Source of the DNA: an uncultured Clostridia bacterium
GTDB taxonomy: Bacteria > Bacillota > Clostridia > TANB77 > CAG-508
Length of the DNA stretch: 64,000 bases
Direction: 5' to 3'
Assembly (NCBI GenBank): GCA_934101145.1
Contig: CAKOPZ010000004.1
Span: 11,652 to 75,651, forward strand
The notes under the pieces were generated by a model. The model searched no databases, had not been told where the DNA came from, and saw only the letters and a program-made list of their open reading frames with translations. The position numbers were made by a program, and so were the translations under genes. This document shows positions 4,924 to 38,340 of the stretch, piece by piece (positions within the stretch are counted from its first letter, which is position 1; every line of letters starts with the position of its first letter).

Positions 4924-6288
4924 ATGCCAGAGTATAGATACAGAGCGATAACTGATAAGGGACAAATTGTAAATAATAGAGTAGAAGATGTAAATAGAAA
5001 TACTTTAATTAAAAGATTAAAAAACAACAATTTGTTGCCTATTAGTATTACGCAAGTTAGGTATAATAGTAAAAAGAAAAAAGTAAGTAAAAGAAATGTT
5101 ATGGATATTGCAGATATCATGAAACAGGCCGATTCATCTAATATTTTACAAGGTAGAATTGTTAATAAGCCAAAATTTAAAGAAAGAGTTAATCTTGCAC
5201 TTGCTAGGGATGAAAAGGTAACTCCAAGAGATATAATAATTTTTACTCAAAATTTTTATTTACTTAAAAAAGCTAATTTTAATAATATTCATGCATTAAG
5301 TACAATAATTGAAAGTACAGAGAATATGACTTTAAGAGGAGTACTTGAAGACATACTTGCTGGTGTTGAAGATGGTGAATATATGTATACAACAATGGAA
5401 TATTATTCTAATATATTTCCATATCTTTATACAAATATGATTAAGGTTGGAGAGTTATCAGGAAATCTTACAAAATCACTTGAACAAGCTGTAAAGTATA
5501 TGGAAACATCAACTGATACAAGTAATAAGCTTAGAAAAATAATACTTCCAAATGCTATACAATTGGTTCTATTAATTGGTTTATTAATATTTGGTGTAGC
5601 ATATATTATACCTTTAATACAAGAATCTTTTGCTGCTGCAGGAGCTACTACTCAACTTCCTGCAATAACGCTTTGGTTTGTTGATTTTTGTAATCGAGTA
5701 CAGCAATTCTGGTATATTCCAGTGATAATAATTGCAGGAATTGCTACAATTATTGTAACATACATTAATACTCCAAAAGGTAAATATAATTTTCACTATT
5801 TTAAATACAAAATGCCAGTGTTTGGAAGCCTAATTTATGCTATGGATTTTGAAAGATTAATGAAAGCTATGCTTTTAAATTTGGAGAATGGTATGAGAAT
5901 TCAAGAGGCATTAGAGGTTAGTAAATCAGTAGTAAAAAACTATGTTATGCTTTCTATTATTGAAACGGCTATTAACAATATTTTAATTGGTGCATCTTGG
6001 ATAGAGCCATTTGAAAGATCAGGACTTTCATCTTCAATGGAAACTGAAATGCTTAAAATAGGTATGCAAACAGATTTAACTGGAATGATGAGAAAACTTG
6101 TTGAATATATGGAAATTGATATAGAGAACAAAATGCAGAAAGTAATGAGCGTATTACCACAAATTGTATATGCAATTGTTGGTATAGCATTGATTTTCTT
6201 GGTAATTGTAATTATTGTACCTTGTATACAATTGTATATGGGTGATTGGCTATTTGACTCTGTAGACTTACCAGAACAATTCAAATAA
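4924..6288 (+). CDS. pilC: Type IV pilus platform protein (GspF/PilC family)
   Basis: Two GspF-type repeats with interspersed TM segments. It follows pilB/pilT. Confidence 0.85.
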   Translation: MPEYRYRAITDKGQIVNNRVEDVNRNTLIKRLKNNNLLPISITQVRYNSKKKKVSKRNVMDIADIMKQADSSNILQGRIVNKPKFKERVNLALARDEKVTPRDIIIFTQNFYLLKKANFNNIHALSTIIESTENMTLRGVLEDILAGVEDGEYMYTTMEYYSNIFPYLYTNMIKVGELSGNLTKSLEQAVKYMETSTDTSNKLRKIILPNAIQLVLLIGLLIFGVAYIIPLIQESFAAAGATTQLPAITLWFVDFCNRVQQFWYIPVIIIAGIATIIVTYINTPKGKYNFHYFKYKMPVFGSLIYAMDFERLMKAMLLNLENGMRIQEALEVSKSVVKNYVMLSIIETAINNILIGASWIEPFERSGLSSSMETEMLKIGMQTDLTGMMRKLVEYMEIDIENKMQKVMSVLPQIVYAIVGIALIFLVIVIIVPCIQLYMGDWLFDSVDLPEQFK

Positions 6289-6321
6289 ATGTTATTATTA
6301 AATATGAATAAAGCAACTAAG

Positions 6322-6350
6322 TTGACAAAAATAGTAAAAAATAGTATAAT
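6322..6350 (+). promoter_or_regulatory. Consensus sigma-A promoter (TTGACA-17-TATAAT)
   Basis: TTGACA at 6322-6327, an exact 17-nt spacer, and TATAAT at 6345-6350. Confidence 0.6.
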
Positions 6351-6356
6351 CTATAA

Positions 6357-6581
6357 CAGATGTTACCAAAATAGGTAAAGAAGAGATTTATATGTGATAT
6401 AAAAACAAGATTAAATTGTAAACGAAGAGCGGATTATATATTTTTTATAGGTATATTTTTATAATATATAAATAGTTGATTAGTTGTTAGAAAATAACAA
6501 TGTTTATTTTGTGCGGGAAAAATTAAACAATAGACAAAATATATAACCAAAAAAGTAGTTTATAATAAACTACTTTTTTTC
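6357..6581 (+). ncRNA. Candidate ~225-nt non-coding transcript or terminated leader upstream of rnj
   Basis: Bounded by the consensus promoter at 6322-6350 and the intrinsic terminator at 6549-6581. There is no credible ORF inside. Confidence 0.3.
6549..6581 (+). terminator. Intrinsic terminator
   Basis: AAAAGTAGTTTAT/ATAAACTAC hairpin followed by a T7 run. Confidence 0.7.
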
Positions 6582-6651
6582 TAATATTGGAAAGGTAAAA
6601 ATTTCCTATTTGACATATATAAATAATTACTAAAAAAGAGAGGATGATAAA

Positions 6652-8598
6652 ATGAAAGAGGAAACATCAGGTATGACTGGTTCTACAGAAAAGAACATAC
6701 CACAAAAAGAAAAACAAACTCGAAGAATGCCAAGAAGAAAAAGTACAAGAATAGATGGCAATAAGAGTACACAAAATGTAGAAGCTAAAAAAAGAAGAAC
6801 TTCAAAAAAGGGAGAAGAAAAAATAAAAGGAAAACTAAGAAAAGAAGAGAAATCTCATTCAGAAGTGACAAAAAGTAACATATATTTGGAAGAAAGAAGA
6901 AAGATGCAAAGAAAACCTAGTATTCCAAAATTTGAATTTAAAAAAGAAAATTTGAAAATTATACCACTAGGTGGATTAGATGAAATCGGAAAAAATATAA
7001 CAGTTTTTGAATATGGAAATGAGATTGTTTTAGTAGACTGTGGACTAGAATTTCCAGAAGATGATATGCTTGGAGTAGATTTAGTTATTCCAGATATCAC
7101 TTATCTTGAAAAAAACAAAGAAAAAATAAAAGGACTTGTAATAACACATGGTCACGAAGATCATATTGGTTCAATACCATATTTACTAAGACAAATTAAT
7201 GTACCAATTTATGCTACAAAATTAACTATTGGATTAATACAAAATAAACTTGAAGAACATAAATTACTTGCAAGTACAAAACTAGTAACAGTTGAACAAG
7301 GTCAAACTGTTAACTTTGGAAATATAAAAGTAGAATTTATAAGAAGTAGCCATAGTATTCCAGATTCTGTAATGCTTGCAATTACCACACCAGCAGGAAC
7401 TGTACTTCATACAGGTGACTTTAAAATTGATTATACACCAATTGATAATCAATTAATGGATTTAGGAAGAATAGCAGAACTTGGGAATAAGGGAATTTTA
7501 GCACTTCTTTCTGATAGTACAAATGCTGAAAGAAAAGGATTCACAATGTCGGAAAGTTCAGTTGGAGAGGTTTTTGATAGATTGTTCCAACATAATTCAA
7601 AAAGAATAGTTGTTGCAACTTTTGCATCAAATGTGCATAGAGTACAACAAATAGTAAATTCAGCTGTAAAATATGGTAGAAAAATTGCAGTATGTGGTAG
7701 AAGTATGATAAATATGATTGAAACAGCAAGAGAACTAGGATATATAGATTCTCCTGAAAATTTATTTATTGATATTGATATGATAAAAAATTATACAGAT
7801 GACCAATTAGTTATAATTACAACAGGAAGTCAAGGAGAGACAATGTCTGCATTAACAAGAATGGCAGCAGGTGAGCACAAAAAAGTTGTTATTACACCAA
7901 ATGATATGGTAATTATTTCTGCAACACCAATACCAGGAAACGAAAAACTTGTATCGAATGTTATAAATGATTTAATGCAAATAGGTGCAGAGGTTGTATA
8001 TAGTGCATTAGAAGATATACACGTATCAGGTCACGCATGTCAAGAAGAGCAAAAATTGATTTTAGCATTAGCAAGACCAAAGTATTTTATACCAGTACAT
8101 GGAGAGTACAAACAACTTAGAGCACATGCAGAAACAGCAAAAAAAATGGGAATACCACCAGAAAATATATTCTTGCTTAATAATGGTAGAGTATTAGAGC
8201 TTAATAAAAAAGAAGCTAAAATTACAACCTCAGTTCCATCAGGAAGAATACTTGTTGATGGTTTAGGTGTTGGAGATGTTGGAAACATAGTACTTCGTGA
8301 TAGACAACATTTATCACAAGATGGACTTATTGTAATAGTTATGACAATGGATTCTTCAACAGGAGAAATTGTTTCAGGTCCAGATGTGGTATCTAGAGGA
8401 TTTGTATATGTTAGAGAATCAGAAAATCTTATGGAAGATGTAAAAAGAGCAATAAGGGACGAAGTAAGAATGTTTGAAGAACATGGAATTCGTGATTGGT
8501 CAACAATAAAATCTACATTAAAAGATAATTTAAGAGACTATATATTCCAAAGAACAAAACGTAACCCTATGATACTACCAATTATAATGGAAGTGTAG
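6652..8598 (+). CDS. rnj: Ribonuclease J with ~95-aa Lys/Arg-rich N-terminal extension
   Basis: Beta-lactamase motif ITHGHEDHIG, beta-CASP and a C-terminal domain. The conserved core starts at KIIPLGGLDEIGKN. Confidence 0.9.
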   Translation: MKEETSGMTGSTEKNIPQKEKQTRRMPRRKSTRIDGNKSTQNVEAKKRRTSKKGEEKIKGKLRKEEKSHSEVTKSNIYLEERRKMQRKPSIPKFEFKKENLKIIPLGGLDEIGKNITVFEYGNEIVLVDCGLEFPEDDMLGVDLVIPDITYLEKNKEKIKGLVITHGHEDHIGSIPYLLRQINVPIYATKLTIGLIQNKLEEHKLLASTKLVTVEQGQTVNFGNIKVEFIRSSHSIPDSVMLAITTPAGTVLHTGDFKIDYTPIDNQLMDLGRIAELGNKGILALLSDSTNAERKGFTMSESSVGEVFDRLFQHNSKRIVVATFASNVHRVQQIVNSAVKYGRKIAVCGRSMINMIETARELGYIDSPENLFIDIDMIKNYTDDQLVIITTGSQGETMSALTRMAAGEHKKVVITPNDMVIISATPIPGNEKLVSNVINDLMQIGAEVVYSALEDIHVSGHACQEEQKLILALARPKYFIPVHGEYKQLRAHAETAKKMGIPPENIFLLNNGRVLELNKKEAKITTSVPSGRILVDGLGVGDVGNIVLRDRQHLSQDGLIVIVMTMDSSTGEIVSGPDVVSRGFVYVRESENLMEDVKRAIRDEVRMFEEHGIRDWSTIKSTLKDNLRDYIFQRTKRNPMILPIIMEV

Positions 8599-14735: not shown

Positions 14736-17111
14736 ATGAAAGAAAATATAGAAAGATATAATCCAAATATTGAAGAAGGATTATCAAATAATCAAGTAGA
14801 GAAAAGAAAAAAAGGAAGGCTTGTTAATTTTGATACAACTTCTCCAACTAAAAGCATAAAGTCAATAATTATAAGCAATTTTTTTACAATATTTAATCTT
14901 ATGAATTTACTACTTGCCTTAGCCGTTTTTGCAGTTGGCGAATATAGAAATATGCTATTTATAGGTCTTGTTGTTATAAATACTGCAATAAGTACATTTC
15001 AAGAGATACATTCAAAAAGAGTGATAGACAAGCTTTCTTTAATTTCAAATACAAAAGTAAACTGCATTAGAAATGGAAAAAAAGAAAAGATTGATATAAA
15101 TGAAATTGTACTTGATGATATATTAGAATTTGAAACAGGAAATCAAATTATAACAGATTGTAAAATAGGACAGGGAGAAATTGAGGTAGACGAATCATTT
15201 ATCACAGGTGAATCAAATGCAATTACAAAAAAAGAAGGAGATATTATTTTATCTGGAAGTTTTGTAATAAGTGGTAAATGTAGAGCTCAGGTAGAACATA
15301 TCGGAGAAGATAACTTTACTTCAAAAATTTCAAAACAAACAAGGTATGTGAAAAAAGTAAATTCAGAAATAATGAATTCACTAAATAAGATAATCAAAAC
15401 AGTGTCAATTATAATTATACCTGTTGGAACTTTATTATTTTTAAACCAATATAACCTTGATGGAGGAATATTAAAAGATGCTGTGATACATACTGTTGCA
15501 GCAATAATTGGAATGATTCCAGAAGGGCTTATACTTCTTACAAGTACGGTGCTTGCAGTTAGTGTAATAAGGCTTTCAAAAAGTAATGTGCTTGTTCAAG
15601 AATTATTTTGCATAGAAACTCTTGCACGTGTTGACACATTGTGTTTGGATAAAACAGGAACAATAACACAAGGAAAGATGGAAGTAAATGATATTGTTTT
15701 AGTAAATGCAAAAAAAGATGAAATGCAAATTATTCTTAAACAAATTGGAAGTGCATCAGAGGATAGTAATGCAACAATTGAAGCAATAAGAGAAAAATTT
15801 ATTGATATCAATGAAGCTGAAAAATGGGAGGCTAAACAAAAAATTGCTTTTTCTTCAAGCAAGAAGTGGTCAGGAATTAGCTTTAAAGATCATGGAACAT
15901 ATGTAATAGGAGCACCAGAATTTGTATTAAAAGAAAAGATAGATGATTACAAGAATATAATAGAAGAATACTCAAAAGACTACAGAATGATAGTTTTAGC
16001 TCATTCAAATAATGATTTTGAAGAAAAAGAACTTCCACAAGATATAGAAGTTTTAGGGTTTGTACTTATAACTGATAAATTAAGAGAAAATGCAAAAAAA
16101 ACGATAGAATACTTTAAAAAACAAGGTGTTGATATAAGGATAATATCAGGAGATAATCCTGCTACAGTATCAAAGATTGCTAAAAAAGCTGGAGTAGAAG
16201 GTTTTGAAAATTATATAGATTGTACAACAATAAAAAGTGAGGAAGAATTAGAAAAGGCAGTAGAAAAATATAAAATATTTGGAAGGGTTACTCCAGAGCA
16301 GAAAAAGCAAATTGTGCAAGAATTAAAGAGACAAGGACATACTGTTGCAATGACAGGAGATGGAGTAAATGATATTATTGCTTTAAAAGAAGCGGATTGT
16401 AGTATTGCAATTGCCTCAGGTTCAGATGCTGCAAGAAATGTATCACAACTTGTACTTCTTGACTCTAACTTTGCATCAATGCCAAAAATAGTAGCAGAAG
16501 GAAGACGTACAATCAACAACCTGGAAAGGTCCGCATCATTGTTTTTATCAAAAACAATATATTCAACAATTCTTGCAATATTATTTGTATTTGTAAAAGC
16601 AGAATATCCATTTATGCCAATACAATTAAGTTTAATCTCACTTGTATGTATAGGAATTCCATCATTTATTCTAGCATTAGAGCCAAACAAAGAAAGAGTA
16701 AAGGGTAAATTTATAGGAAATGTTATAAGCAAATCAATTCCTACAGCATTAACTGTTATACTAAATATAGTTATTGTTTTAATATTAAATATATTTTTAA
16801 AATTACCATCACAAATATATTCTACAATATGTGTTATACTTACAGTGCTTACTGGTTTTATGCTAATTATAAAAATATCAAGACCATTTAATATTTTAAG
16901 AGGAATTTTGCTTCCAACACTTGTAGCAATTTTTGCTGGTTGTTGTTTAATATTTAAAAATTGGTTTTGCGTTGAACTTACAAAAGAATATGTAGGTTTA
17001 ATGATATTGCTTTCTGGAATAGCTGTATTTAATTTTATTATATCAAATATGGTATCAAGTAAATTGTTAAATAAGATAAGAAAGAAAAATGAAGTAAAGA
17101 TAAGCATTTAG
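14736..17111 (+). CDS. Cation-translocating P-type ATPase
   Basis: DKTGTIT phosphorylation motif, TGES-like TGESN, MTGDGVNDIIALKEAD, and 8-10 TM segments. Confidence 0.85.
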   Translation: MKENIERYNPNIEEGLSNNQVEKRKKGRLVNFDTTSPTKSIKSIIISNFFTIFNLMNLLLALAVFAVGEYRNMLFIGLVVINTAISTFQEIHSKRVIDKLSLISNTKVNCIRNGKKEKIDINEIVLDDILEFETGNQIITDCKIGQGEIEVDESFITGESNAITKKEGDIILSGSFVISGKCRAQVEHIGEDNFTSKISKQTRYVKKVNSEIMNSLNKIIKTVSIIIIPVGTLLFLNQYNLDGGILKDAVIHTVAAIIGMIPEGLILLTSTVLAVSVIRLSKSNVLVQELFCIETLARVDTLCLDKTGTITQGKMEVNDIVLVNAKKDEMQIILKQIGSASEDSNATIEAIREKFIDINEAEKWEAKQKIAFSSSKKWSGISFKDHGTYVIGAPEFVLKEKIDDYKNIIEEYSKDYRMIVLAHSNNDFEEKELPQDIEVLGFVLITDKLRENAKKTIEYFKKQGVDIRIISGDNPATVSKIAKKAGVEGFENYIDCTTIKSEEELEKAVEKYKIFGRVTPEQKKQIVQELKRQGHTVAMTGDGVNDIIALKEADCSIAIASGSDAARNVSQLVLLDSNFASMPKIVAEGRRTINNLERSASLFLSKTIYSTILAILFVFVKAEYPFMPIQLSLISLVCIGIPSFILALEPNKERVKGKFIGNVISKSIPTALTVILNIVIVLILNIFLKLPSQIYSTICVILTVLTGFMLIIKISRPFNILRGILLPTLVAIFAGCCLIFKNWFCVELTKEYVGLMILLSGIAVFNFIISNMVSSKLLNKIRKKNEVKISI

Positions 17112-25049: not shown

Positions 25050-25874
25050 ATGAATTTGAACGAGAAAATTAGAATTTTGGTGGCTGACGATAATAAGGAA
25101 TTTGGAGATACACTTGTAAGTTATTTAGAAAAAGAAGAAAACTTTGAGGTTGTTGGTATTGCAAGAGACGGCAATCAAGCTGTTGATGAAATAACAATGA
25201 TGAAGCCTGATATTGTTTTGCTTGATATCATTATGCCACATTTAGATGGGCTTGGTGTCTTAGAAAAATTAAATGAAAGAAATATAGAAAATAAACCTAT
25301 GTGTATTATTTTATCAGCGGTTGGACAAGATAAAATTACTCAAAGGGCAATTGATCTTGGTGCTCAATATTACATAGTTAAACCATTTGATATTCAAATT
25401 TTAGTAAAAAGAATAAAAGAACTAAAATATTATCAACCATCACAATATAAAAATAATTTTATTAGTAGAGAAATAAAAACACAATATATAGATATATCCC
25501 CAGAAGAGAAAAAGAATGAAGAAAACTTAGAAGCACTTGTTACAAATGTAATACATGAAGTTGGTGTACCAGCTCATATTAAAGGTTACCAATATTTAAG
25601 AGAAGCAATTATAATGGTAGTAAATAATATTGAAGTTATAAATCAAATAACAAAACAATTATATCCAGATATTGCTAAAAAATATGGAACAACTCCATCA
25701 AGAGTAGAAAGAGCAATACGTCATGCAATAGAAGTTGCATGGGGAAGAGGTCAAGCAGATGTTGTTGAAAGTATATTTGGATATACTGTTTCAGCATCAA
25801 AAGGCAAGCCAACAAATAGTGAATTTATAGCAATGATTGCTGATAAATTAAGACTAGAATTAAAAACAGCGTAA
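25050..25874 (+). CDS. spo0A: Sporulation master regulator Spo0A
   Basis: Receiver domain ([14 protein letters not shown]) plus a Spo0A-C domain ([12 protein letters not shown].., [15 protein letters not shown]). Confidence 0.92.
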
Positions 25875-25880
25875 ATAATA

Positions 25881-25906
25881 AACCCAGTACGATTTTGTAC
25901 CGGGTT
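25881..25906 (+). terminator. Hairpin after spo0A
   Basis: AACCCAGTAC-gatttt-GTACCGGGTT. There is no clear T-run, so efficiency is uncertain. Confidence 0.45.
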
Positions 25907-26213
25907 AAATTATATAGGGGTACACAAAAAAAGATGGTACAAAAGTGCCAGAACATAGACGCTCAACACCAAATTAATATTTAAAGCATATAATGTTCCC
26001 GAAAATAGTCAAACTAATTTTATGTGTAATCCTTTTAAAAATTGATACAATACCTACAATTATAACTTTAGCGATTGATATGATTGATAAACTTTTTTTG
26101 AAAGGGGAAAGTAAAATGAAAAAAATAAATTGCAAGAATGGTAAAGACCTTTGTATATATGGGGTTGCAAAATAAATATGTTTGATGAAGATAGGTAAAT
26201 AATTATAGATAAA

Positions 26214-26246
26214 GGTCGAGGTGGTTCGAGTCCACTCCCAAATCCA
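26214..26246 (+). other. tRNA 3'-half-like fragment (T-arm plus acceptor strand)
   Basis: GGTGG-TTCGAGT-CCACT T-arm followed by CCCAAATCCA. No matching 5' acceptor strand was found upstream. Confidence 0.35.
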
Positions 26247-26574
26247 TTATATAAAGAATAGATGATTAAGTTCATTTATTCTTATTTTTTATTTCTAGGA
26301 AATAGCATTTTAAAATGTATAATTTGTTATATTTTATAATTTCTTTAGAAATTTTGTGCTTTTTGTAATAAAAGAACTAATATGAAAACGTATTGATAAA
26401 AATTAGAGGTTATGATAAAGAAATGAATAAAAAATAATTGTAAAATTTGTGATATTTGCTTGAAAAATGTAAAAATTTATTGTATAGTAAATGTTGTAGG
26501 AAATGAGATAGCAGATATGTTGTGGCTACCACTTTCAATACTCGATACATTCGAGAGCAAGGAGGTGGTTGTTT

Positions 26575-26676
26575 ATGGGATTTATATTATTTTTAATATA
26601 TGCTTTGGGATTCTCCCTAACTGTAAACGTAGCCTTGTTGTGTATTATATACATAATGTGGACTAATAAACAATAA
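26575..26676 (+). CDS. 33-aa hydrophobic peptide MGFILFLIYALGFSLTVNVALLCIIYIMWTNKQ
   Basis: GGAGGTGG lies 6 nt upstream of the ATG. The position and architecture are conserved in copies B and C. It is too short for the ORF track. Confidence 0.5.
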   Translation: MGFILFLIYALGFSLTVNVALLCIIYIMWTNKQ

Positions 26677-26761
26677 AAAACAACACATTCTGCTTTAGTC
26701 GGTTGGAATGTGTTGTTACAACAATTTATATGGTAGCCACATTCTGTGACTCTCATTTTCT
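26672..26761 (-). ncRNA. Predicted ~90-nt antisense RNA of cassette A
   Basis: The start is inferred ~7 nt after the minus-strand TATAAT. The end is the 26679-26717 hairpin, which is followed by a U-run only on the minus strand. Confidence 0.4.
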
Positions 26762-26958
26762 ATCTTTATTATACACAGCTTTTCCATTTTTGTCAAATGG
26801 ATTTTTTTTATTTTTTTACGAAAATTTTTAGTTCATAAAATTGACAAAGAAAAAATTTTCTACTACAATCAATGCAATAAACATATAGAGGTAAATGCAA
26901 TGAATATTTATTGCATTAGTTATTTTTTAAGAAACAAGAGTTTCACATAAAATTCAAT

Positions 26959-27144
26959 ACAACACCATCTCGTGTAGAAAGAGCAATACGTCATGCAATA
27001 GAGGTTGCATGGGGAAGGGGCCAAGCAGATGTTGTTGAAAGTATATTTGGATATACCGTTTCTGCCAGCAAAGGAAAGCCAACAAATAGCGAATTCATTG
27101 CGATGATAGCTGATAAATTAAGACTTGAATTAAAAACAGCGTAA
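26959..27144 (+). pseudogene. Detached duplicate of the last 62 codons of spo0A
   Basis: It translates to exactly the same 62 aa as 25689-25874, with 21 nt differences in 17 codons, all synonymous. The homology continues through the terminator to 27186. Confidence 0.9.
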
Positions 27145-27325
27145 ATAATAAACCCAGTGCGATTTTGTACTGGGTTAAATTATATAAATGTAAAATATTG
27201 GATTATTACACTAGATAAATAAGTAAAAATATACTATACTATTAAGCATAGGAAATGAGAATAAGCAGATGTGGGTGCTACCACTTTACATACGCAGTTT
27301 ATGCTGTGAGAATGGAGGTGGTGCT

Positions 27326-27436
27326 ATGGAAATATTATTAATTCAATTAATATATCTATTATTCTTCGGATTAATAGGAGTTACTATCATAGCAGTTGCC
27401 TTAATCATAACTTTGGTTATTATTTTGAGCAAATAA
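27326..27436 (+). CDS. 36-aa hydrophobic peptide MEILLIQLIYLLFFGLIGVTIIAVALIITLVIILSK
   Basis: GGAGGTGG SD 6 nt upstream of the ATG. It is a close paralog of the copy C peptide (shared IYLL.FGLI...II..ALII.LVIILSK). Confidence 0.55.
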   Translation: MEILLIQLIYLLFFGLIGVTIIAVALIITLVIILSK

Positions 27437-27522
27437 AAAAACACCACATTATGCCCTGCCAAGCTATGTGGTGTTAAACATATTATATATGGTAGCACAC
27501 ATTTCTGTGGCTTTCATTTCCT
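27432..27522 (-). ncRNA. Predicted ~90-nt antisense RNA of cassette B
   Basis: Consensus minus-strand promoter. AACACCACAT/ATGTGGTGTT hairpin plus a U7 run on the minus strand. Confidence 0.45.
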
Positions 27523-27564
27523 ATAATTATTATACATAGATTAAACAGATTTGTCAAACAAAAA

Positions 27565-27999
27565 TTATTTTTTTTCATTTAATAGATCTTCTAAAGTATG
27601 CCATGCTAAAAGTGCACATTTAACTCTAGCAGGCATATTTGCTATATTTTTGAATGCGATTGCATCTTCTAATTTTGAGTATTCTTCTTCAGAAAGATTT
27701 TCTCTTTTTATCATTTTAATAAAATCTTCTATTATTTCCTTTGCTTGTTCAATTGTTTTATCTTTTAATGTATCAATCATAATAGAAGTTGAAGCTTGAG
27801 AAATTGCACATCCATGTCCTGTAAAAGCCATATCTTTTATGACATTTCCATCTAAAATCAATTCTATTTCGATTTCATCTCCACAATTTGGATTATGACC
27901 TTTACTGCAAAGATCACAATGATCAAGCTTTTTCTTATTATATGAATTCATGCTATGTTCCATTATAAGGTCATTATACATTTCATCTATTTCACTCAT
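27565..27999 (-). CDS. sufU: Fe-S cluster scaffold SufU (IscU/NifU-like)
   Basis: NPNCGDEI, GHGCAIS and PARVKCA cysteine motifs. It is the last gene of the suf operon. Confidence 0.85.
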   Translation of the reverse strand: MSEIDEMYNDLIMEHSMNSYNKKKLDHCDLCSKGHNPNCGDEIEIELILDGNVIKDMAFTGHGCAISQASTSIMIDTLKDKTIEQAKEIIEDFIKMIKRENLSEEEYSKLEDAIAFKNIANMPARVKCALLAWHTLEDLLNEKK

Positions 28000-32983: not shown

Positions 32984-33502
32984 TTAGTTACAATGTGATA
33001 TTTTTTTAAGAATAGTAATAATAATTATCTTTGGAGTTGGTTTTGTATCAACATTATATGAAAAATAATTTTGTAAAATTTCAAAAGGAGTTTCTGCATA
33101 CATAAAATTTGTAGCTTTAATTATATTGTTTTTTATATTCACAACTGATTTTTTATATTTTCGAGCTATAAAAGAATAAACATCACGTTCTAAATTTATT
33201 TCAAGGTTTGGATAAGTTTTATTAATAAACATGATAGCTTCATACAAGTATTGGGTACCAATATGCTTTATATTAAAGCCAATATATAATAATTCATTTA
33301 TAATTTTTTGCTCTTCGGAAATTTTAGAGCAATGAATGGACATATTATTGTATATATGTAATGAATCTGGAATAACATCTATAGGAATGTTTAACTTTGT
33401 GAATTTGTTGGTAAATACATTTAAGGTAAAAAAATCGCAATTGTTTTTTTCTAAATATTTTATAATTTTTTCAATATCTGCTAGTACATATATTTTTCTC
33501 AT
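32984..33502 (-). CDS. Spo0A C-terminal-domain-like DNA-binding protein with truncated receiver
   Basis: GFNIKHIGTQYLYEAIMFI.., VYSFIARKY.. and KPTPKIIIITILKKI align with Spo0A in this window ([39 protein letters not shown]). The N-terminus is only ~55 aa. Confidence 0.6.
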   Translation of the reverse strand: MRKIYVLADIEKIIKYLEKNNCDFFTLNVFTNKFTKLNIPIDVIPDSLHIYNNMSIHCSKISEEQKIINELLYIGFNIKHIGTQYLYEAIMFINKTYPNLEINLERDVYSFIARKYKKSVVNIKNNIIKATNFMYAETPFEILQNYFSYNVDTKPTPKIIIITILKKISHCN

Positions 33503-34248: not shown

Positions 34249-34959
34249 TTAATATATTTCAATAATTTTATCATCATCATTTTCAAGCATTTCATTTAAG
34301 ATTTGCTCTTTATTTGAATTTTCAAAGCTAATGTTGTATGAATATGAATTATTATTATGTTGTAAATTTGATATTTTACTATTGCTAATATCTAAAAATT
34401 TCGCAAGTTGGTTTGTCATATCATTAATATATTGTTTAGTTACCCCATGTACAATTAATTTGTAATTTTGAATTTTATTTGTAGATTCATCTAATTGTAA
34501 TATGTATATTTTGGTATAATTTTTTTCGTTTTCAGATATTTCAGAGTCAGTTATTGTTTGTGTAGCAACATAATATGAAACATTAGAAGATGAATAATTA
34601 TAACCAAATATTGAGTGAAATATATCTATATTACCATTTTCGTCTATTATCCATAAATAATTAGGTATTATAAAAATAACTATAATAATTGTCAAAATAA
34701 TTGTAATTATCAATAATGAAATTGCACTTCTTTTAAAAATAGTATTTTTCTTATTTATCTTTTTTAAAAAATCAATTTCTTTTTCTTCATAGATATCTTT
34801 TAATAATAATTCACCATTCATATTTTTTAGAGTGTTTGCACAATTTGGACAATTTTTGATATGATTTTTAATATAATCATTTGTTGCACGTGAAGTCAAA
34901 CTTTCAATGTAATTTGGTAATAAATCTTTTACAATTTCACAATCATTTTTAGAACTCAT
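34249..34959 (-). CDS. Anti-sigma factor (zf-HC2, single TM)
   Basis: N-terminal C.....H...C..C zinc motif (CEIVKDL..HIKNCPNC) and a central TM. It overlaps the sigma gene by 11 nt. Confidence 0.75.
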   Translation of the reverse strand: MSSKNDCEIVKDLLPNYIESLTSRATNDYIKNHIKNCPNCANTLKNMNGELLLKDIYEEKEIDFLKKINKKNTIFKRSAISLLIITIILTIIIVIFIIPNYLWIIDENGNIDIFHSIFGYNYSSSNVSYYVATQTITDSEISENEKNYTKIYILQLDESTNKIQNYKLIVHGVTKQYINDMTNQLAKFLDISNSKISNLQHNNNSYSYNISFENSNKEQILNEMLENDDDKIIEIY

Positions 34960-35437
34960 TTGAATTATCCTCCTTTAATTTTTCTTTTCCTCTATAAAAT
35001 GTTATTCTAGCCCAAGCTTCAGATTTTCCCATTAACAAACCAATTTCTTTAAAACTCAAATCACCACAAATCCTAAATAAAATTACTTTTTTTGTTGTAA
35101 TATTTAATGAATCAATTTGTTCATACAATTTTTCTTTTAAAATCTTATCGACTATGCAAGTTTCTAAATCAGAAGTAATATCAGATACTGATTCAAAATT
35201 TTCTATAGGAATTTTAGTTTTTTCTTTTTTTAAATGCTTGTACCATAAAAATTTAGCAATTTGACATAGCCAAACTGATAATTTACAGTTTCCTTGAAAT
35301 TTATCAATGCTTTTGATTGCACAGAAAAAAGTTTCTTGGGTTAAATCTTCAGATAATTCTACATTGTTAGTAATACATAATAAAAAGTTATATACTGTTT
35401 TTGAGTATTCTTCATATATTTTCTGTATATCATACAC
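34949..35437 (-). CDS. ECF-type sigma-70 family sigma factor
   Basis: Region 2 (..DLTQETFFCAIK..) and region 4 (..SFKEIGLLMGKSEAWARITFYRGKEKL). GTG start with GGAGGA 8 nt upstream. Confidence 0.8.
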   Translation of the reverse strand: MYDIQKIYEEYSKTVYNFLLCITNNVELSEDLTQETFFCAIKSIDKFQGNCKLSVWLCQIAKFLWYKHLKKEKTKIPIENFESVSDITSDLETCIVDKILKEKLYEQIDSLNITTKKVILFRICGDLSFKEIGLLMGKSEAWARITFYRGKEKLKEDNSNEF

Positions 35438-37674: not shown

Positions 37675-37842
37675 AAAGCATTACAAATAAAAGGCTATTC
37701 TATTAGTTTTGTATACTGATATTACTATCAGGTTTTTGCTAATATTTATGGCAATAACCTAAATGCCAGGAAACCATCCGCCGAATCTTTCGATAAGTTT
37801 CCATCCTCGTCAACACATATATTTTGTGTCCAGGCGCTTTTT
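37675..37842 (-). ncRNA. glmS ribozyme
   Basis: The minus strand reads AGCGCCTGGAC...GACGAGGATGGAAACTTATCGAAAGATTCGGCGGATGGTTTCCTGGC, matching the conserved glmS ribozyme core directly upstream of glmS. Confidence 0.85.
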
Positions 37843-38084
37843 ATTTATAAATTATCCTCCTTTCAAAAAGTGCATTTGCAAAACTTCTCTAGTTATGTCA
37901 TTATATTACTATAGATTCAAAATTGTGTCAAATTGATTAATGAATAAACTGGCAAAAACTTGTTCTTGAGTATTGATTTTTATATTCTTACATGATATAC
38001 TAGTTCTTGTAGGAAATGAGAATAAGCAGATGTGGTTTGCCACTTTTAATCCACAACTTATGTTGTGAGTGAGGAGGTGGTGCT

Positions 38085-38195
38085 ATGATAGAAGCAGTTT
38101 TATTAGAAATAATATATCTACTTTCATTTGGCTTAATTGCCGAAACTATTATAGTGTTTGCCTTAATTATACTGGTTATAATTTTAAGCAAATAA
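38085..38195 (+). CDS. 36-aa hydrophobic peptide MIEAVLLEIIYLLSFGLIAETIIVFALIILVIILSK
   Basis: GGAGGTGG SD 6 nt upstream. Paralog of the copy B peptide. Confidence 0.55.
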   Translation: MIEAVLLEIIYLLSFGLIAETIIVFALIILVIILSK

Positions 38196-38283
38196 AATAA
38201 AAAAAACACATCTGTACTTGCCCGGTTAGATGTGTTTTTTACATATTCAGTGGTAAACCACGTTTGTGGATTCTCTATTTCCT
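38196..38283 (-). ncRNA. Predicted antisense RNA of cassette C
   Basis: Minus-strand promoter at 38318-38290. The AAACACATCT/AGATGTGTTT hairpin is flanked by A and T runs, so it can terminate in both directions. Confidence 0.4.
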
Positions 38284-38340
38284 ACTTTTATTATAATCAA
38301 TTGTGTTCAAAAAGTCAATAAAAAAGGAGAAAATTTTGAA

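Follow-up and report, generated by a model that had tools for sequence, protein, structure and literature searches.

A 228-nt duplication of the 3' end of spo0A, located in the 64-kb stretch of DNA analysed here (the window), is probably the attachment-site repeat of small integrative elements that target the extreme 3' end of this gene. This reading is backed directly by the repeat itself, its recurrence in other species, the adjacency of a recombinase gene, empty sites, the native haplotype and mosaic alleles. spo0A, which acts as the master switch of endospore formation, is among the most conserved genes of spore-forming Firmicutes. A literature search returned no report of integration at spo0A; this type of footprint is known for other genes, and for spo0A it is, as far as found, apparently new.

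The duplicated spo0A end

The gene, the two copies of its end and its native neighbor are arranged as follows.

25050..25874, + strand: spo0A, full length, 274 aa, Response_reg and Spo0A_C domains, uninterrupted by the insertion
25689..25916, + strand: repeat copy 1, alpha haplotype; last 61 codons and stop of spo0A, then terminator t
26959..27186, + strand: repeat copy 2, orphan spo0A 3' end, beta haplotype, then terminator t'
27565..27999, − strand: sufU (NifU_N), native right-hand neighbor of spo0A

As the original prediction had it, the copies form an ungapped direct repeat of the gene end and its terminator. They are 90% identical and spaced 1270 nt start to start. Beyond the stop codon, the repeat takes in 42 nt of 3' sequence including the terminator hairpin (25881-25906 for t, 27151-27176 for t'). 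The copies differ at 22 nt, of which 20 fall in 17 codons and two in the terminator stem; the 17 codons agree with the first count, while its 21 coding nucleotides become 20 on recounting. None of the 17 changed codons is non-synonymous, and the encoded peptides are identical, as had been claimed. Roughly 25% of single-base changes made at random here would be synonymous, and the probability that all 17 changed codons would be so under neutral decay is ~1e-10, which bears out the argument that decay of a dead fragment would be mostly non-synonymous. With these values and no indels, a decaying tandem duplicate or pseudogene fragment was rejected. By the Nei-Gojobori method, the 20 differences over 42.7 synonymous sites give a pS of 0.47, a dS of ~0.74 and a dN of 0.

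Two finer points of the original prediction fared less well. The terminator stems had been read as carrying compensating changes. At pair 6, the A.C mismatch of copy 1 is A-U in copy 2; at pair 9, the A-U of copy 1 is G.U in copy 2. The two changes thus hit different base pairs and compensatory evolution was rejected, a claim on which no other argument depends. The variants of copy 2 had also been taken to point to a less AT-biased donor. Nine of the 17 variant codons end in G or C in copy 2 versus one in copy 1, so the bias is present but weak: copy 2 has a GC3 of 0.21, the genome averages 0.14 (sd 0.05), and values this high occur in 7% of 61-codon windows. GC3 could not tell which copy is foreign because neither is an outlier.

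The structure is reproducible. A segment of 2951 nt that contains it is 100% identical in contigs of two other assemblies (L001 and L003, which jointly represent 17 further similar contigs) and 99% identical in L002, from a Hadza sample. Because independent metagenome assemblies, from other samples and studies, share the structure, the repeat is not the product of a mis-assembly.

Empty sites and the native allele

The regions downstream of spo0A were compared among related strains, and empty sites were found within the same species. Four strains (L111, L114, L115, L118) carry spo0A(alpha), terminator Z and sufU, with 63 nt between the spo0A stop and sufU and flanks that are 98% identical. L103/L104, from a sister lineage, have the same empty-site order. 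In the window, terminator t stands in place of the native terminator Z. All eight conspecific strains with a single copy (four have an empty site, four have one cassette), as well as the sister lineages, show the copy-1 haplotype at the spo0A end; these strains are 2-5 sites off copy 1 versus ~20 off copy 2. Identity to native single-copy spo0A ends is 97-99% for copy 1 and 88-90% for copy 2, with flanks at 94-99%.

Because the spo0A ends of empty-site conspecifics match copy 1, this copy represents the native allele, and copy 2 probably arrived with the insertion; because all single-copy strains carry the copy-1 haplotype, copy 2 is a foreign allele. The central claim of the original prediction, that copy 2 evolved within a working spo0A elsewhere and came by integration or recombination at spo0A, is therefore upheld. 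It agrees with two further observations, detailed below: copy 2 is joined to a conserved element end that precedes an orphan spo0A copy in four other species, and related insertions have a tyrosine recombinase gene directly after spo0A and the orphan copy at their far end. None of the relatives compared proved to be a native source of the full beta haplotype. The Spo0A protein of the window is identical to that of L002 and one residue off those of the empty-site strains.

Architecture of the insertion

The insertion in the window is a 1.04-kb remnant that comprises terminator t, a tRNA-like scrap, cassette A and a conserved element end with an outward promoter. A second cassette follows copy 2.

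25917..26433, no strand: left part of the insertion, non-coding, seen only in the window species
26214-26247, no strand: tRNA-like scrap within the left part, resembling a T-arm and acceptor end
26434..26815, + strand: cassette A, type I toxin-antitoxin-like by its ORF, promoters and RNA fold
26460-26488, + strand: cassette A promoter, from a promoter scan
26575-26676, + strand: cassette A hydrophobic ORF, 33 aa, with a GGAGG ribosome-binding site
26796 to 26768, − strand: cassette A antisense promoter, convergent, perfect consensus, for a putative antisense RNA
26817..26958, + strand: conserved right end of the element (the spacer), similar to sequence before orphan copies in relatives
26841-26869, + strand: sigma-70-type promoter TTGACA-17-TACAAT, from a promoter scan, reading into copy 2
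26893-26917, + strand: leader hairpin or dyad AATGCAAT-N8-ATTGCATT, in the spacer before copy 2
27187..27564, + strand: cassette B, second type I toxin-antitoxin-like cassette, abutting the sufU stop
27326-27436, + strand: cassette B hydrophobic ORF, 36 aa
27557 to 27529, − strand: cassette B antisense promoter, convergent, perfect consensus

The spacer is 78-88% identical over ~125-300 nt to the region before the orphan spo0A copy in L049, L086 (on one contig with L045) and L085. The Spo0A proteins of these relatives share only ~70% identity with that of the window. The tRNA 3' fragment reported earlier did not hold up beyond its T-arm and acceptor look: ARAGORN called no tRNA in the insertion, and Rfam found no RNA family there, its one match being sub-threshold and on the T-arm-like stem. 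By tblastn, no recombinase gene lies in 25917-26958 or anywhere in the 64-kb window, and the window copy is therefore classed as a non-autonomous remnant rather than an intact element. This absence from both insertion and window counts against the preferred reading, and the mobility of this particular copy is putative.

Cassettes A and B are homologous, at 73-81% over their ends. Cassette B is missing in L002, where the native terminator Z comes after copy 2, and counterparts of cassette B lie 3' of spo0A in L029 (94% identical) and L046 (90%). Terminator t' and cassette B behind copy 2 are probably a remnant of an older insertion. Type I toxin-antitoxin modules such as hok/sok, par/Fst and those of C. 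difficile prophages stabilize mobile elements. Both cassettes resemble them in encoding hydrophobic peptides of 33-36 aa, in a long mRNA 5' leader predicted to pair with the 3' end and hide the ribosome-binding site, and in a strong convergent promoter placed for an antisense RNA. In the predicted fold of the cassette A RNA (26497-26790), a 5'-3' closing helix forms and the ribosome-binding site is paired (z = −6.2). Unlike known type I modules, the cassettes have no Pfam match for their toxin-like peptides and no Rfam family, and because their repeats are inverted rather than direct, the 5' end of the antisense RNA resembles the toxin leader rather than complementing it. From their sequences, the cassettes are thus toxin-antitoxin-like and putatively of type I, and such a cassette may stabilize the insertion against loop-out.

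Recurrence and the recombinase family

At least six further species in this clade of uncultured, AT-rich gut Clostridia share the architecture. Intact insertions span 6.5-8.9 kb, start ~200 nt after the spo0A stop and open with a gene, on the spo0A strand, for an Xer-like tyrosine recombinase. Their far end consists of an outward promoter, conserved before the orphan copy in two subfamilies, and then the element's own version of the final 87-213 nt of spo0A. L049, L045/L086 and L096/L099 have an orphan spo0A 3' copy downstream of the full gene, and such a copy is also present in 8/8 contexts of two recombinase clusters (L087-L094). L085, a short contig without spo0A, bears the element end and an orphan copy. 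The left edge of the repeat differs by subfamily, at −213, −186 and −90 nt from the stop. In L089, L090 and L092-94, the left end of an element follows copy 2, showing tandem accretion.

The recombinases found just after spo0A in L067, L052, L037, L009 and L045 are 327-335 aa long, contain Phage_int_SAM and Phage_integrase domains and are Xer-like by NCBIfam. Their family has >2000 members; no lambda-type arm-binding domain was detected. The gene stands ~200 nt past the spo0A stop in a fixed position and orientation in 8/8 metagenome contexts and five species representatives. An element of the IMEX kind, which lacks its own recombinase and uses XerCD at dif, was rejected, as the relatives encode an Xer-like recombinase and the site is the spo0A end. 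Upstream of the site, the order of an Impact_N gene followed by spo0A is kept in nearly all of 80 related species, while the downstream side is not; an integration hot spot at this locus would explain why gene order in the clade breaks exactly after spo0A.

The excess of synonymous change is common to these repeats. The ratio of synonymous to non-synonymous changed codons is 17/0 in the window, 6/1 in L049, 17/2 in L045-L086, 1-3/0 in L091-94 and 4-6/0 in L087-90. Within each genome, the two copies are closest to each other and have lineage-specific residues in common. Identity across species could not tell which copy is foreign because the copies of each genome resemble each other most, and the crossover could not be located from the copies of strains L087-L090 and L091-L094. 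A few observations sit less comfortably. The orphan copy of L096/L099 shares its left edge with that of the window, is native in type and lacks the conserved element end, which fits the preferred reading poorly. No short att-like repeats were found within the 6 kb fetched around the recombinase insertions of L009, L037, L052 and L067. A metagenome pattern scan for the element end returned only two further copies. IMG/VR gave nothing for the conserved element end and one weak partial match for the recombinase, and neither it nor a phage collection held a circular form or free attP. Thirteen virome contigs in the phage collection match the Spo0A C-terminus, and the three inspected contain full-length, distant spo0A and no attP. 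The lack of a circular form or attP and of a full beta native, together with the varying left edge and the likeness of the two copies within each genome, counts against the preferred reading.

Mosaic alleles and a model for integration

Sister strains reveal that the copies do not evolve in isolation. The working spo0A of L002/L004 contains a beta tract of 16 sites, that of L100/L102, where no element remains, is beta in its 3' half, and L112 has a further mosaic working allele; both copies therefore exchange sequence with the working gene. The purely synonymous divergence probably arises because the copies swap tracts with a working spo0A, an exchange that also helps to keep copy 2 coding-like.

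A reciprocal exchange close to the stop codon would give four types of junction, and all four are seen: alpha|Z in the empty sites, alpha|t in window copy 1, beta|Z in L002 copy 2 and spacer-beta|t' in window copy 2. The partner switch between haplotype and terminator takes place within one 14-19-nt interval at the stop codon, close to identical stretches of 29-35 nt. The expressed end (copy 1) has the native haplotype and the far copy the foreign one, and any element-supplied part of the expressed end could amount to no more than its last ~13 codons. A second candidate site lies slightly upstream.

25822..25849, no strand: near-perfect palindrome (13/14 bp), AATTTATAGCAAT G ATTGCTGATAAATT, inside 10 spo0A codons, read from the sequence

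This palindrome falls inside the shortest repeat common to all three element subfamilies, and in L105/L106 the alpha haplotype gives way to an L091-like patch exactly at its center. It is a candidate recombination core.

These data suggest a model in which integration at the spo0A end would leave direct repeats of the gene end bracketing the element. Spo0A would be unchanged by integration because the element brings its own copy of the last 87-213 nt of the gene. The Xer-like recombinase presumably catalyses the reaction, with strand exchange likely in the last ~45 nt of spo0A, either in the stop-codon region or at the palindrome, and the recombinase gene of the circular form would be driven by the outward promoter. 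The element of the window would have decayed to 1.04 kb and lost its recombinase, with copy 1 native and copy 2 element-borne. Element-borne copies and the working gene would repeatedly swap tracts through gene conversion and loop-out by homologous recombination, and each haplotype would therefore spend time in a functional spo0A and be filtered by purifying selection. Since the two copies in a genome are the most alike, we infer that the element-borne copy must be refreshed from the host.

Comparison with known systems and alternative readings

The closest analog is prophage e14 at icd/icdC of E. coli. Cryptic prophage e14, like phage 21, sits in icd of E. coli K-12 and is associated with the icdC pseudogene (Hill et al. 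1989, as described in PMC6379469 and PMC13626634). In both systems, the element lies at the 3' end of a conserved essential protein gene that stays functional, and direct repeats of the gene end, its last ~160-190 nt in the case of icd, surround the element. Differences between the copies are confined almost entirely to synonymous or conservative sites, and excision or loop-out yields chimeric alleles that appear as clusters of 'parallel synonymous changes'. The spo0A elements differ in their target and their uncultured clostridial hosts, in an Xer-like recombinase with no detected arm-binding domain of the lambda type, and in that the window copy is a 1-kb remnant devoid of a recombinase. The geometry also appears reversed, as the evidence favors an arrangement in which the gene keeps its native allele and the copy brought by the element is the one at the far end.

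A strictly e14-like geometry would place the crossover at the left edge of the repeat, so that copy 1 from codon T213 on would be element-supplied and copy 2 would be the displaced native end. e14 and phage 21 use this arrangement at icd (PMC6379469, PMC13626634), and the repeat always reaches the stop codon and goes no further unless elements stand in tandem. Moreover, L096/L099 and the window have the same copy-2 left edge and the same t'-cassette B-sufU flank with different left cargo, a pattern that two independent insertions at a left-edge core would yield, and ATGCAATAAA-like motifs are repeated near the copy 2 left edge in all subfamilies. Such a geometry is nevertheless unlikely. It requires a beta-type native allele in the window lineage, 88% identical to sister strains whose flanks are at 94-99%, and no single-copy strain has the full beta haplotype. 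It also requires a 'spacer|alpha' attP junction, which was never seen, and in L105/L106 the sequence linked to the left end begins at the palindrome rather than at the left edge of the subfamily repeat.

It is quite improbable that no site-specific step is involved and that RecA-dependent homologous recombination in copies of the very conserved spo0A end, of the Campbell type or by double crossover, spreads and inserts elements for which the recombinase is mere cargo. The mosaic alpha/beta alleles and loop-out scars do attest to active homologous recombination between copies, the window element has no recombinase, left edges differ among subfamilies, and the copies follow the host sequence. 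The constant placement of the recombinase gene in all 8 contexts and 5 representatives argues otherwise, as does the tandem accumulation of elements, which occurs at other site-specific hot spots. Furthermore, the 14-19-nt switch interval is too short for efficient homologous recombination when identical stretches of 29-35 nt lie nearby.

An in-place tandem duplication whose second copy is itself functional, whether translated or as a structured RNA, would account for the strong conserved promoter reading into copy 2 and for a predicted copy-2 transcript slightly more structured than shuffles (z = −3.0). It is very hard to reconcile with the remaining evidence: a dS of ~0.74 with a dN of 0 cannot arise in place where flanks differ by 1-2% between strains, and the same species has empty sites. 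Copy 2 lacks a start codon, a stop lies in frame 13 codons upstream of it, and the short leader ORFs are not conserved between species; translation of copy 2 was rejected. Finally, the joining of two strain alleles of the spo0A end into one contig can be dismissed almost outright, for although the window is probably metagenomic and contig L004 ends within cassette A, independent assemblies from other samples and studies contain the identical structure, its junctions have unique sequences, and homologs of these junctions are present in other species.

The attachment-site reading also invites comparison with two other classes of elements. Genomic islands and prophages integrate in the 3' ends of tRNA and tmRNA genes, and non-autonomous, CIME-type derivatives of them exist. 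Like these islands, the spo0A elements have direct repeats of the target 3' end and an integrase gene beside the target, they stack in tandem at one hot spot, and their decayed remnants keep the att repeats. Unlike them, they target a protein-coding gene and have longer repeats (87-213 nt), whose coding nature makes the filter of purifying selection visible.

Intervening elements are found in sporulation genes, namely skin in sigK, SPbeta in spsM and yin in yabG (PMC5025042, PMC10747680). They share with the spo0A elements a site-specific recombinase, a target in the sporulation pathway and endospore-forming hosts. In contrast to spo0A, whose frame is never interrupted and for which no developmental excision is implied, their target genes are split and restored by excision in the mother cell. 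A skin-like element was rejected for the window, where 25050-25874 is a complete 274-aa ORF.

Implications

The presence of a recombinase family with >2000 public relatives at the spo0A end in many uncultured gut Clostridia points to an integration hot spot, for which an orphan Spo0A_C fragment is a simple marker. Clusters of synonymous polymorphism at the spo0A end would be recombination scars rather than mutation hot spots, the same lesson as for icd. The repeat is also a clean case of purifying selection being visible on an apparently dead gene fragment. The spo0A end and its recombinase may offer a natural, gene-sparing integration site for organisms currently without genetics.

There is a slim chance that the elements plug into spo0A regulation rather than merely park there. 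In the integrated state, no promoter or terminator is detectable between spo0A and the recombinase gene. Under this regulatory reading, excision or rearrangement would be coupled to activation of the sporulation master regulator, and the far-end promoter would make a sense RNA of the spo0A 3' end. This RNA, or a swap of terminators, could change the fate of spo0A mRNA and hence sporulation frequency, and the element-borne homology would be a portable arm that moves recombinase-less remnants by homologous recombination.

The repeated end of spo0A

An ungapped alignment bears out the predicted 228-bp duplication of the spo0A 3' end and its terminator. Positions 25689-25916 recur at 26959-27186, offset by 1270 nt, and comprise the final 61 spo0A codons, the stop and 42 nt 3' of the stop.

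Segments of the spo0A region and the third cassette copy
25050-25874, plus strand: spo0A
25689-25916: copy 1, the end of spo0A itself
25881-25906: hairpin of terminator t, directly 3' of copy 1
517 nt after t and before cassette A: non-coding DNA
26214-26247, inside the 517-nt part: T-arm and acceptor-like scrap (GGTGGTTCGAGTCCACTCCCAAATCCA)
26434-26815: cassette A
26817-26958: 142-nt spacer, with a near-consensus promoter (26841-26869) directed into copy 2
26959-27186: copy 2, the orphan end, closing with terminator t', nearly identical to t
27187-27564: cassette B, the last segment, adjoining the sufU stop (27565)
~37990-38330: third cassette copy, with a 36-aa ORF (38085-38195) and a convergent consensus promoter

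The copies differ at 22 positions. Twenty of these lie in the coding part, spread over 17 codons, and all are synonymous, multi-step pairs such as AGA/CGT and TCA/AGC among them; the original prediction was right about the synonymy and the 17 codons and miscounted the nucleotides as 21. The remaining two are in the stem of the terminator, where pair 6 is an A.C mismatch in copy 1 that is mended in copy 2, and pair 9 is G.U in copy 2, so that the supposed compensating changes form no compensating pair. Because only about one quarter of random changes in this coding stretch would be synonymous, the pattern has a probability of ~1e-10 under neutral decay. With dS ~0.74 (20 differences over 42.7 synonymous sites) and dN 0, it is unlike the decay of a dead fragment, as had been argued. 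Copy 2 has no start codon and meets an in-frame stop 13 codons upstream, so that, as read from its sequence, it cannot be translated.

The duplication is not an artefact. The exact window Spo0A is encoded on 22 contigs of public assemblies; two contigs from other samples (L001, L003) share 2951 nt with the window without a difference, and a Hadza contig (L002) is 99% identical. Mis-assembly, raised beforehand as a possible refutation, is not supported.

The native copy and the crossover

A protein search with the window Spo0A yielded closer relatives. Four loci of the same species (L111, L114, L115, L118; one residue different, flanks 98% identical) are empty sites, with 63 nt including a terminator, Z, and then sufU; four more (L112, L113, L116, L117) carry Z, one cassette and sufU. 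Two loci with Spo0A 94% identical (L103/L104) are also empty. Most of a sister lineage with Spo0A 98% identical has one cassette, and two of its members (L096/L099) have different cargo followed by an orphan copy.

The haplotype of copy 1 (alpha) is found in every single-copy strain, at 2-5 sites from copy 1 versus about 20 from copy 2. Against a further compared locus (L095), the flanks are 94-99% identical and copy 1 98.4%, versus 88.2% for copy 2. These comparisons mark alpha as native and the copy-2 haplotype (beta) as foreign and, with the empty sites, support its proposed arrival by integration or recombination at spo0A.

Beta is always joined to the spacer (window, L002). One reciprocal exchange near the stop would give four junctions, and each of them was found: alpha|Z at empty sites, alpha|t at window copy 1, beta|Z at L002 copy 2 and spacer-beta|t' at window copy 2. 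The switch of partners between haplotype and terminator is confined to 14-19 nt around the stop, and the crossover probably fell in the final ~45 nt of spo0A. A crossover at the left edge of the repeat, of the type seen with the E. coli prophage e14, is improbable; L096/L099 fit it better than they fit a crossover near the stop. An alternative candidate for the recombination core is a near-perfect 13/14-bp palindrome in universally conserved spo0A codons (25822-25849 and 27092-27119). Four of the 20 synonymous differences fall in the copy-2 palindrome and weaken it, and in two further loci (L105/L106) the sequence linked to the element left end starts at this palindrome.

L096/L099 (4826-7140) read spo0A, Z, cassette C, 1.65 kb of cargo (with small membrane proteins and, on the minus strand, a toxin-like ORF), orphan copy, t', cassette B and sufU. 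Their orphan copy is of the native haplotype, shares its left edge with that of the window, and lacks the conserved spacer. Recombination between the 3' ends of these two cassettes would account for the single-cassette strains, which look like deletion products.

Recurrence in other species

The best 80 of 579 related spo0A loci, from one-genome-per-species representatives, were surveyed. All belong to uncultured Clostridia of human, rabbit, chicken and ruminant guts, with Spo0A 64-83% identical to that of the window. The gene upstream of spo0A is kept in nearly all 80 and sufU is downstream in none, so gene order breaks exactly 3' of spo0A. In one of the compared loci (L049) the spo0A 3' end occurs again 1.47 kb downstream; ahead of it stand a homologous toxin cassette and a spacer that shares 82.5% identity with that of the window. 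A spacer-motif scan of metagenome contigs gave two further cases: L085, ordered GIY-YIG gene, spacer, orphan copy, and L086, on the same contig as locus L045 and >6 kb downstream of its spo0A.

Repeat length follows subfamily: ~213 nt (L091-94), 186-190 nt (window, L049, L045, L085, L096) and 87-90 nt (L087-90). The repeat always ends at the stop codon, save where the left end of another element comes next, which indicates tandem accretion. Synonymous and non-synonymous codon changes between copies number 6/1, 17/2, 1-3/0 and 4-6/0 across other species and subfamilies; the differences are almost all synonymous in every case compared.

In L045 the DNA directly after spo0A encodes, in order, a tyrosine recombinase with a frameshift, a 525-aa protein of unknown family and a DEAD-box-type helicase. 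Four loci (L067, L052, L037, L009) have an intact recombinase of 327-335 aa ~200 nt past the spo0A stop, and remnants persist in five (L013, L020, L029, L044, L066). The family (2096 proteins at E <= 1e-30) is Xer-like, yet under every NCBIfam cut-off. Four contexts were fetched for each of two abundant members; in all eight the recombinase gene follows Impact_N and spo0A, with an orphan copy of the spo0A 3' end 6.5-8.9 kb downstream. The gene may be transcribed by read-through from spo0A, since the interval between the two in contig L091 holds no promoter- or terminator-like site.

In the element left end, an inverted repeat, CACTACTTG ... CAAGTAGTG (L091 9860-9905, L090 9853-9870), overlaps a TTGACA hexamer that precedes the recombinase gene and may be an operator. 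Separately, in L087, L089 and L090 (~5500-7900 and 14866-15240) a large serine recombinase gene, which in L089 and L090 is split into two ORFs, and accompanying orphan PASTA-domain fragments adjoin a penicillin-binding-protein gene just upstream of Impact-spo0A, and one more PASTA fragment lies within the spo0A-linked element; this locus may be another gene-end-duplicating insertion.

Exchange with the working gene

In L002/L004 the first four variable sites of the working spo0A are alpha, the next 16 beta, and terminator t follows; elsewhere the 2.1-kb region matches the window at 99.9% identity, and the beta tract is a gene-conversion tract. In two loci without the duplication (L100/L102) the 5' half of the spo0A region is alpha and the 3' half beta, as would be left by loop-out between two copies, and L112 has a four-site patch in spo0A. 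Together with lineage-specific residues common to both copies in every species, these mosaics argue that each haplotype is periodically part of a functional spo0A, which accounts for the lack of amino-acid differences between the copies of the window.

As a baseline, the same 61 codons were compared between pairs of species representatives. Only 2 of 86 pairs with 20-24 nucleotide differences have no amino-acid difference; some pairs with 23-39 differences also have none, so beta fits an ordinary orthologue of a species-level relative in which the peptide is the same. In the proposed search for its closest allele, the top matches outside the window species were the recombinant alleles described above, and no native donor was found among the spo0A loci compared.

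Spo0A residue 99 (25344-25346) is Arg in all carriers of the window's insertion and Lys in all conspecific and sister non-carriers, the sole protein difference between carriers and conspecific non-carriers. A possible Spo0A paralogue or competitor is a 172-aa protein (32984-33502, minus strand) with the Spo0A_C DNA-binding domain alone, lacking the receiver domain. Its gene lies close to one for an ECF-type sigma factor (34949-35437) and is kept in conspecific contigs.

Mechanism and known systems

The feature belongs to a kind already known, the duplicated attachment site at a protein gene's 3' end, and the original prediction was essentially right in observation and is supported in interpretation. 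The Xer-like recombinase would catalyse integration at the spo0A end. The 1.27-kb unit of the window would be a non-autonomous remnant, possibly mobilised in trans or by homologous recombination. If the element were circular, its conserved outward promoter would point toward the recombinase gene.

Tandem accretion and decay, as in the spo0A elements, are also seen in tRNA-gene islands and in derivatives of these that lack a recombinase. A skin-type intervening element is ruled out by the spo0A reading frame, which is never broken, and an IMEX by the element's own recombinase and a site other than dif. Prophage e14 (and phage 21) at icd, with the icdC fragment, is the closest parallel; e14 excision yields chimeric icd alleles, visible as parallel synonymous changes (PMC13626634, PMC6379469). 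There the element supplies the expressed gene end, whereas at spo0A the geometry is possibly reversed, with the native end expressed. The target spo0A is new and the recombinase family previously undescribed; a full-text literature search turned up no account of spo0A serving as an attachment site, which does not itself prove novelty.

Cassettes and other cargo

Cassettes A, B and the third copy share a promoter, a ~80-nt leader, a strong ribosome-binding site and a very hydrophobic 33-36-aa ORF, with a perfect-consensus promoter on the opposite strand aimed back into the 3' end. The cassette A transcript is predicted to pair its 5' end with its 3' end, sequestering the ribosome-binding site (z = -6.2). 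This is the layout of type I toxin-antitoxin loci with putative toxins; the family has no Pfam or Rfam match. Cassette A would stabilise the insertion, because a cell that looped it out across the 228-nt repeats would lose toxin and antitoxin genes together.

The supposed tRNA 3' fragment between the repeats survives as the T-arm-like scrap at 26214-26247, where ARAGORN called no tRNA. It is confined to the insertion of the window species and may be what remains of an att site from a tRNA-targeting element that came along as cargo.

The third copy shows that the cassette family is dispersed and not bound to spo0A; it is flanked by the glmS ribozyme (37691-37849, minus strand) on one side and the next gene on the other. 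Elsewhere, a short or broken recombinase gene stands between spo0A and a cassette-B-like cassette (L029 7000-7600, L044, L046 6700-6800). The cassettes of these three loci are 90-94% identical to cassette B of the window and their Spo0A only ~71%, so the cassette appears to have moved recently between species.
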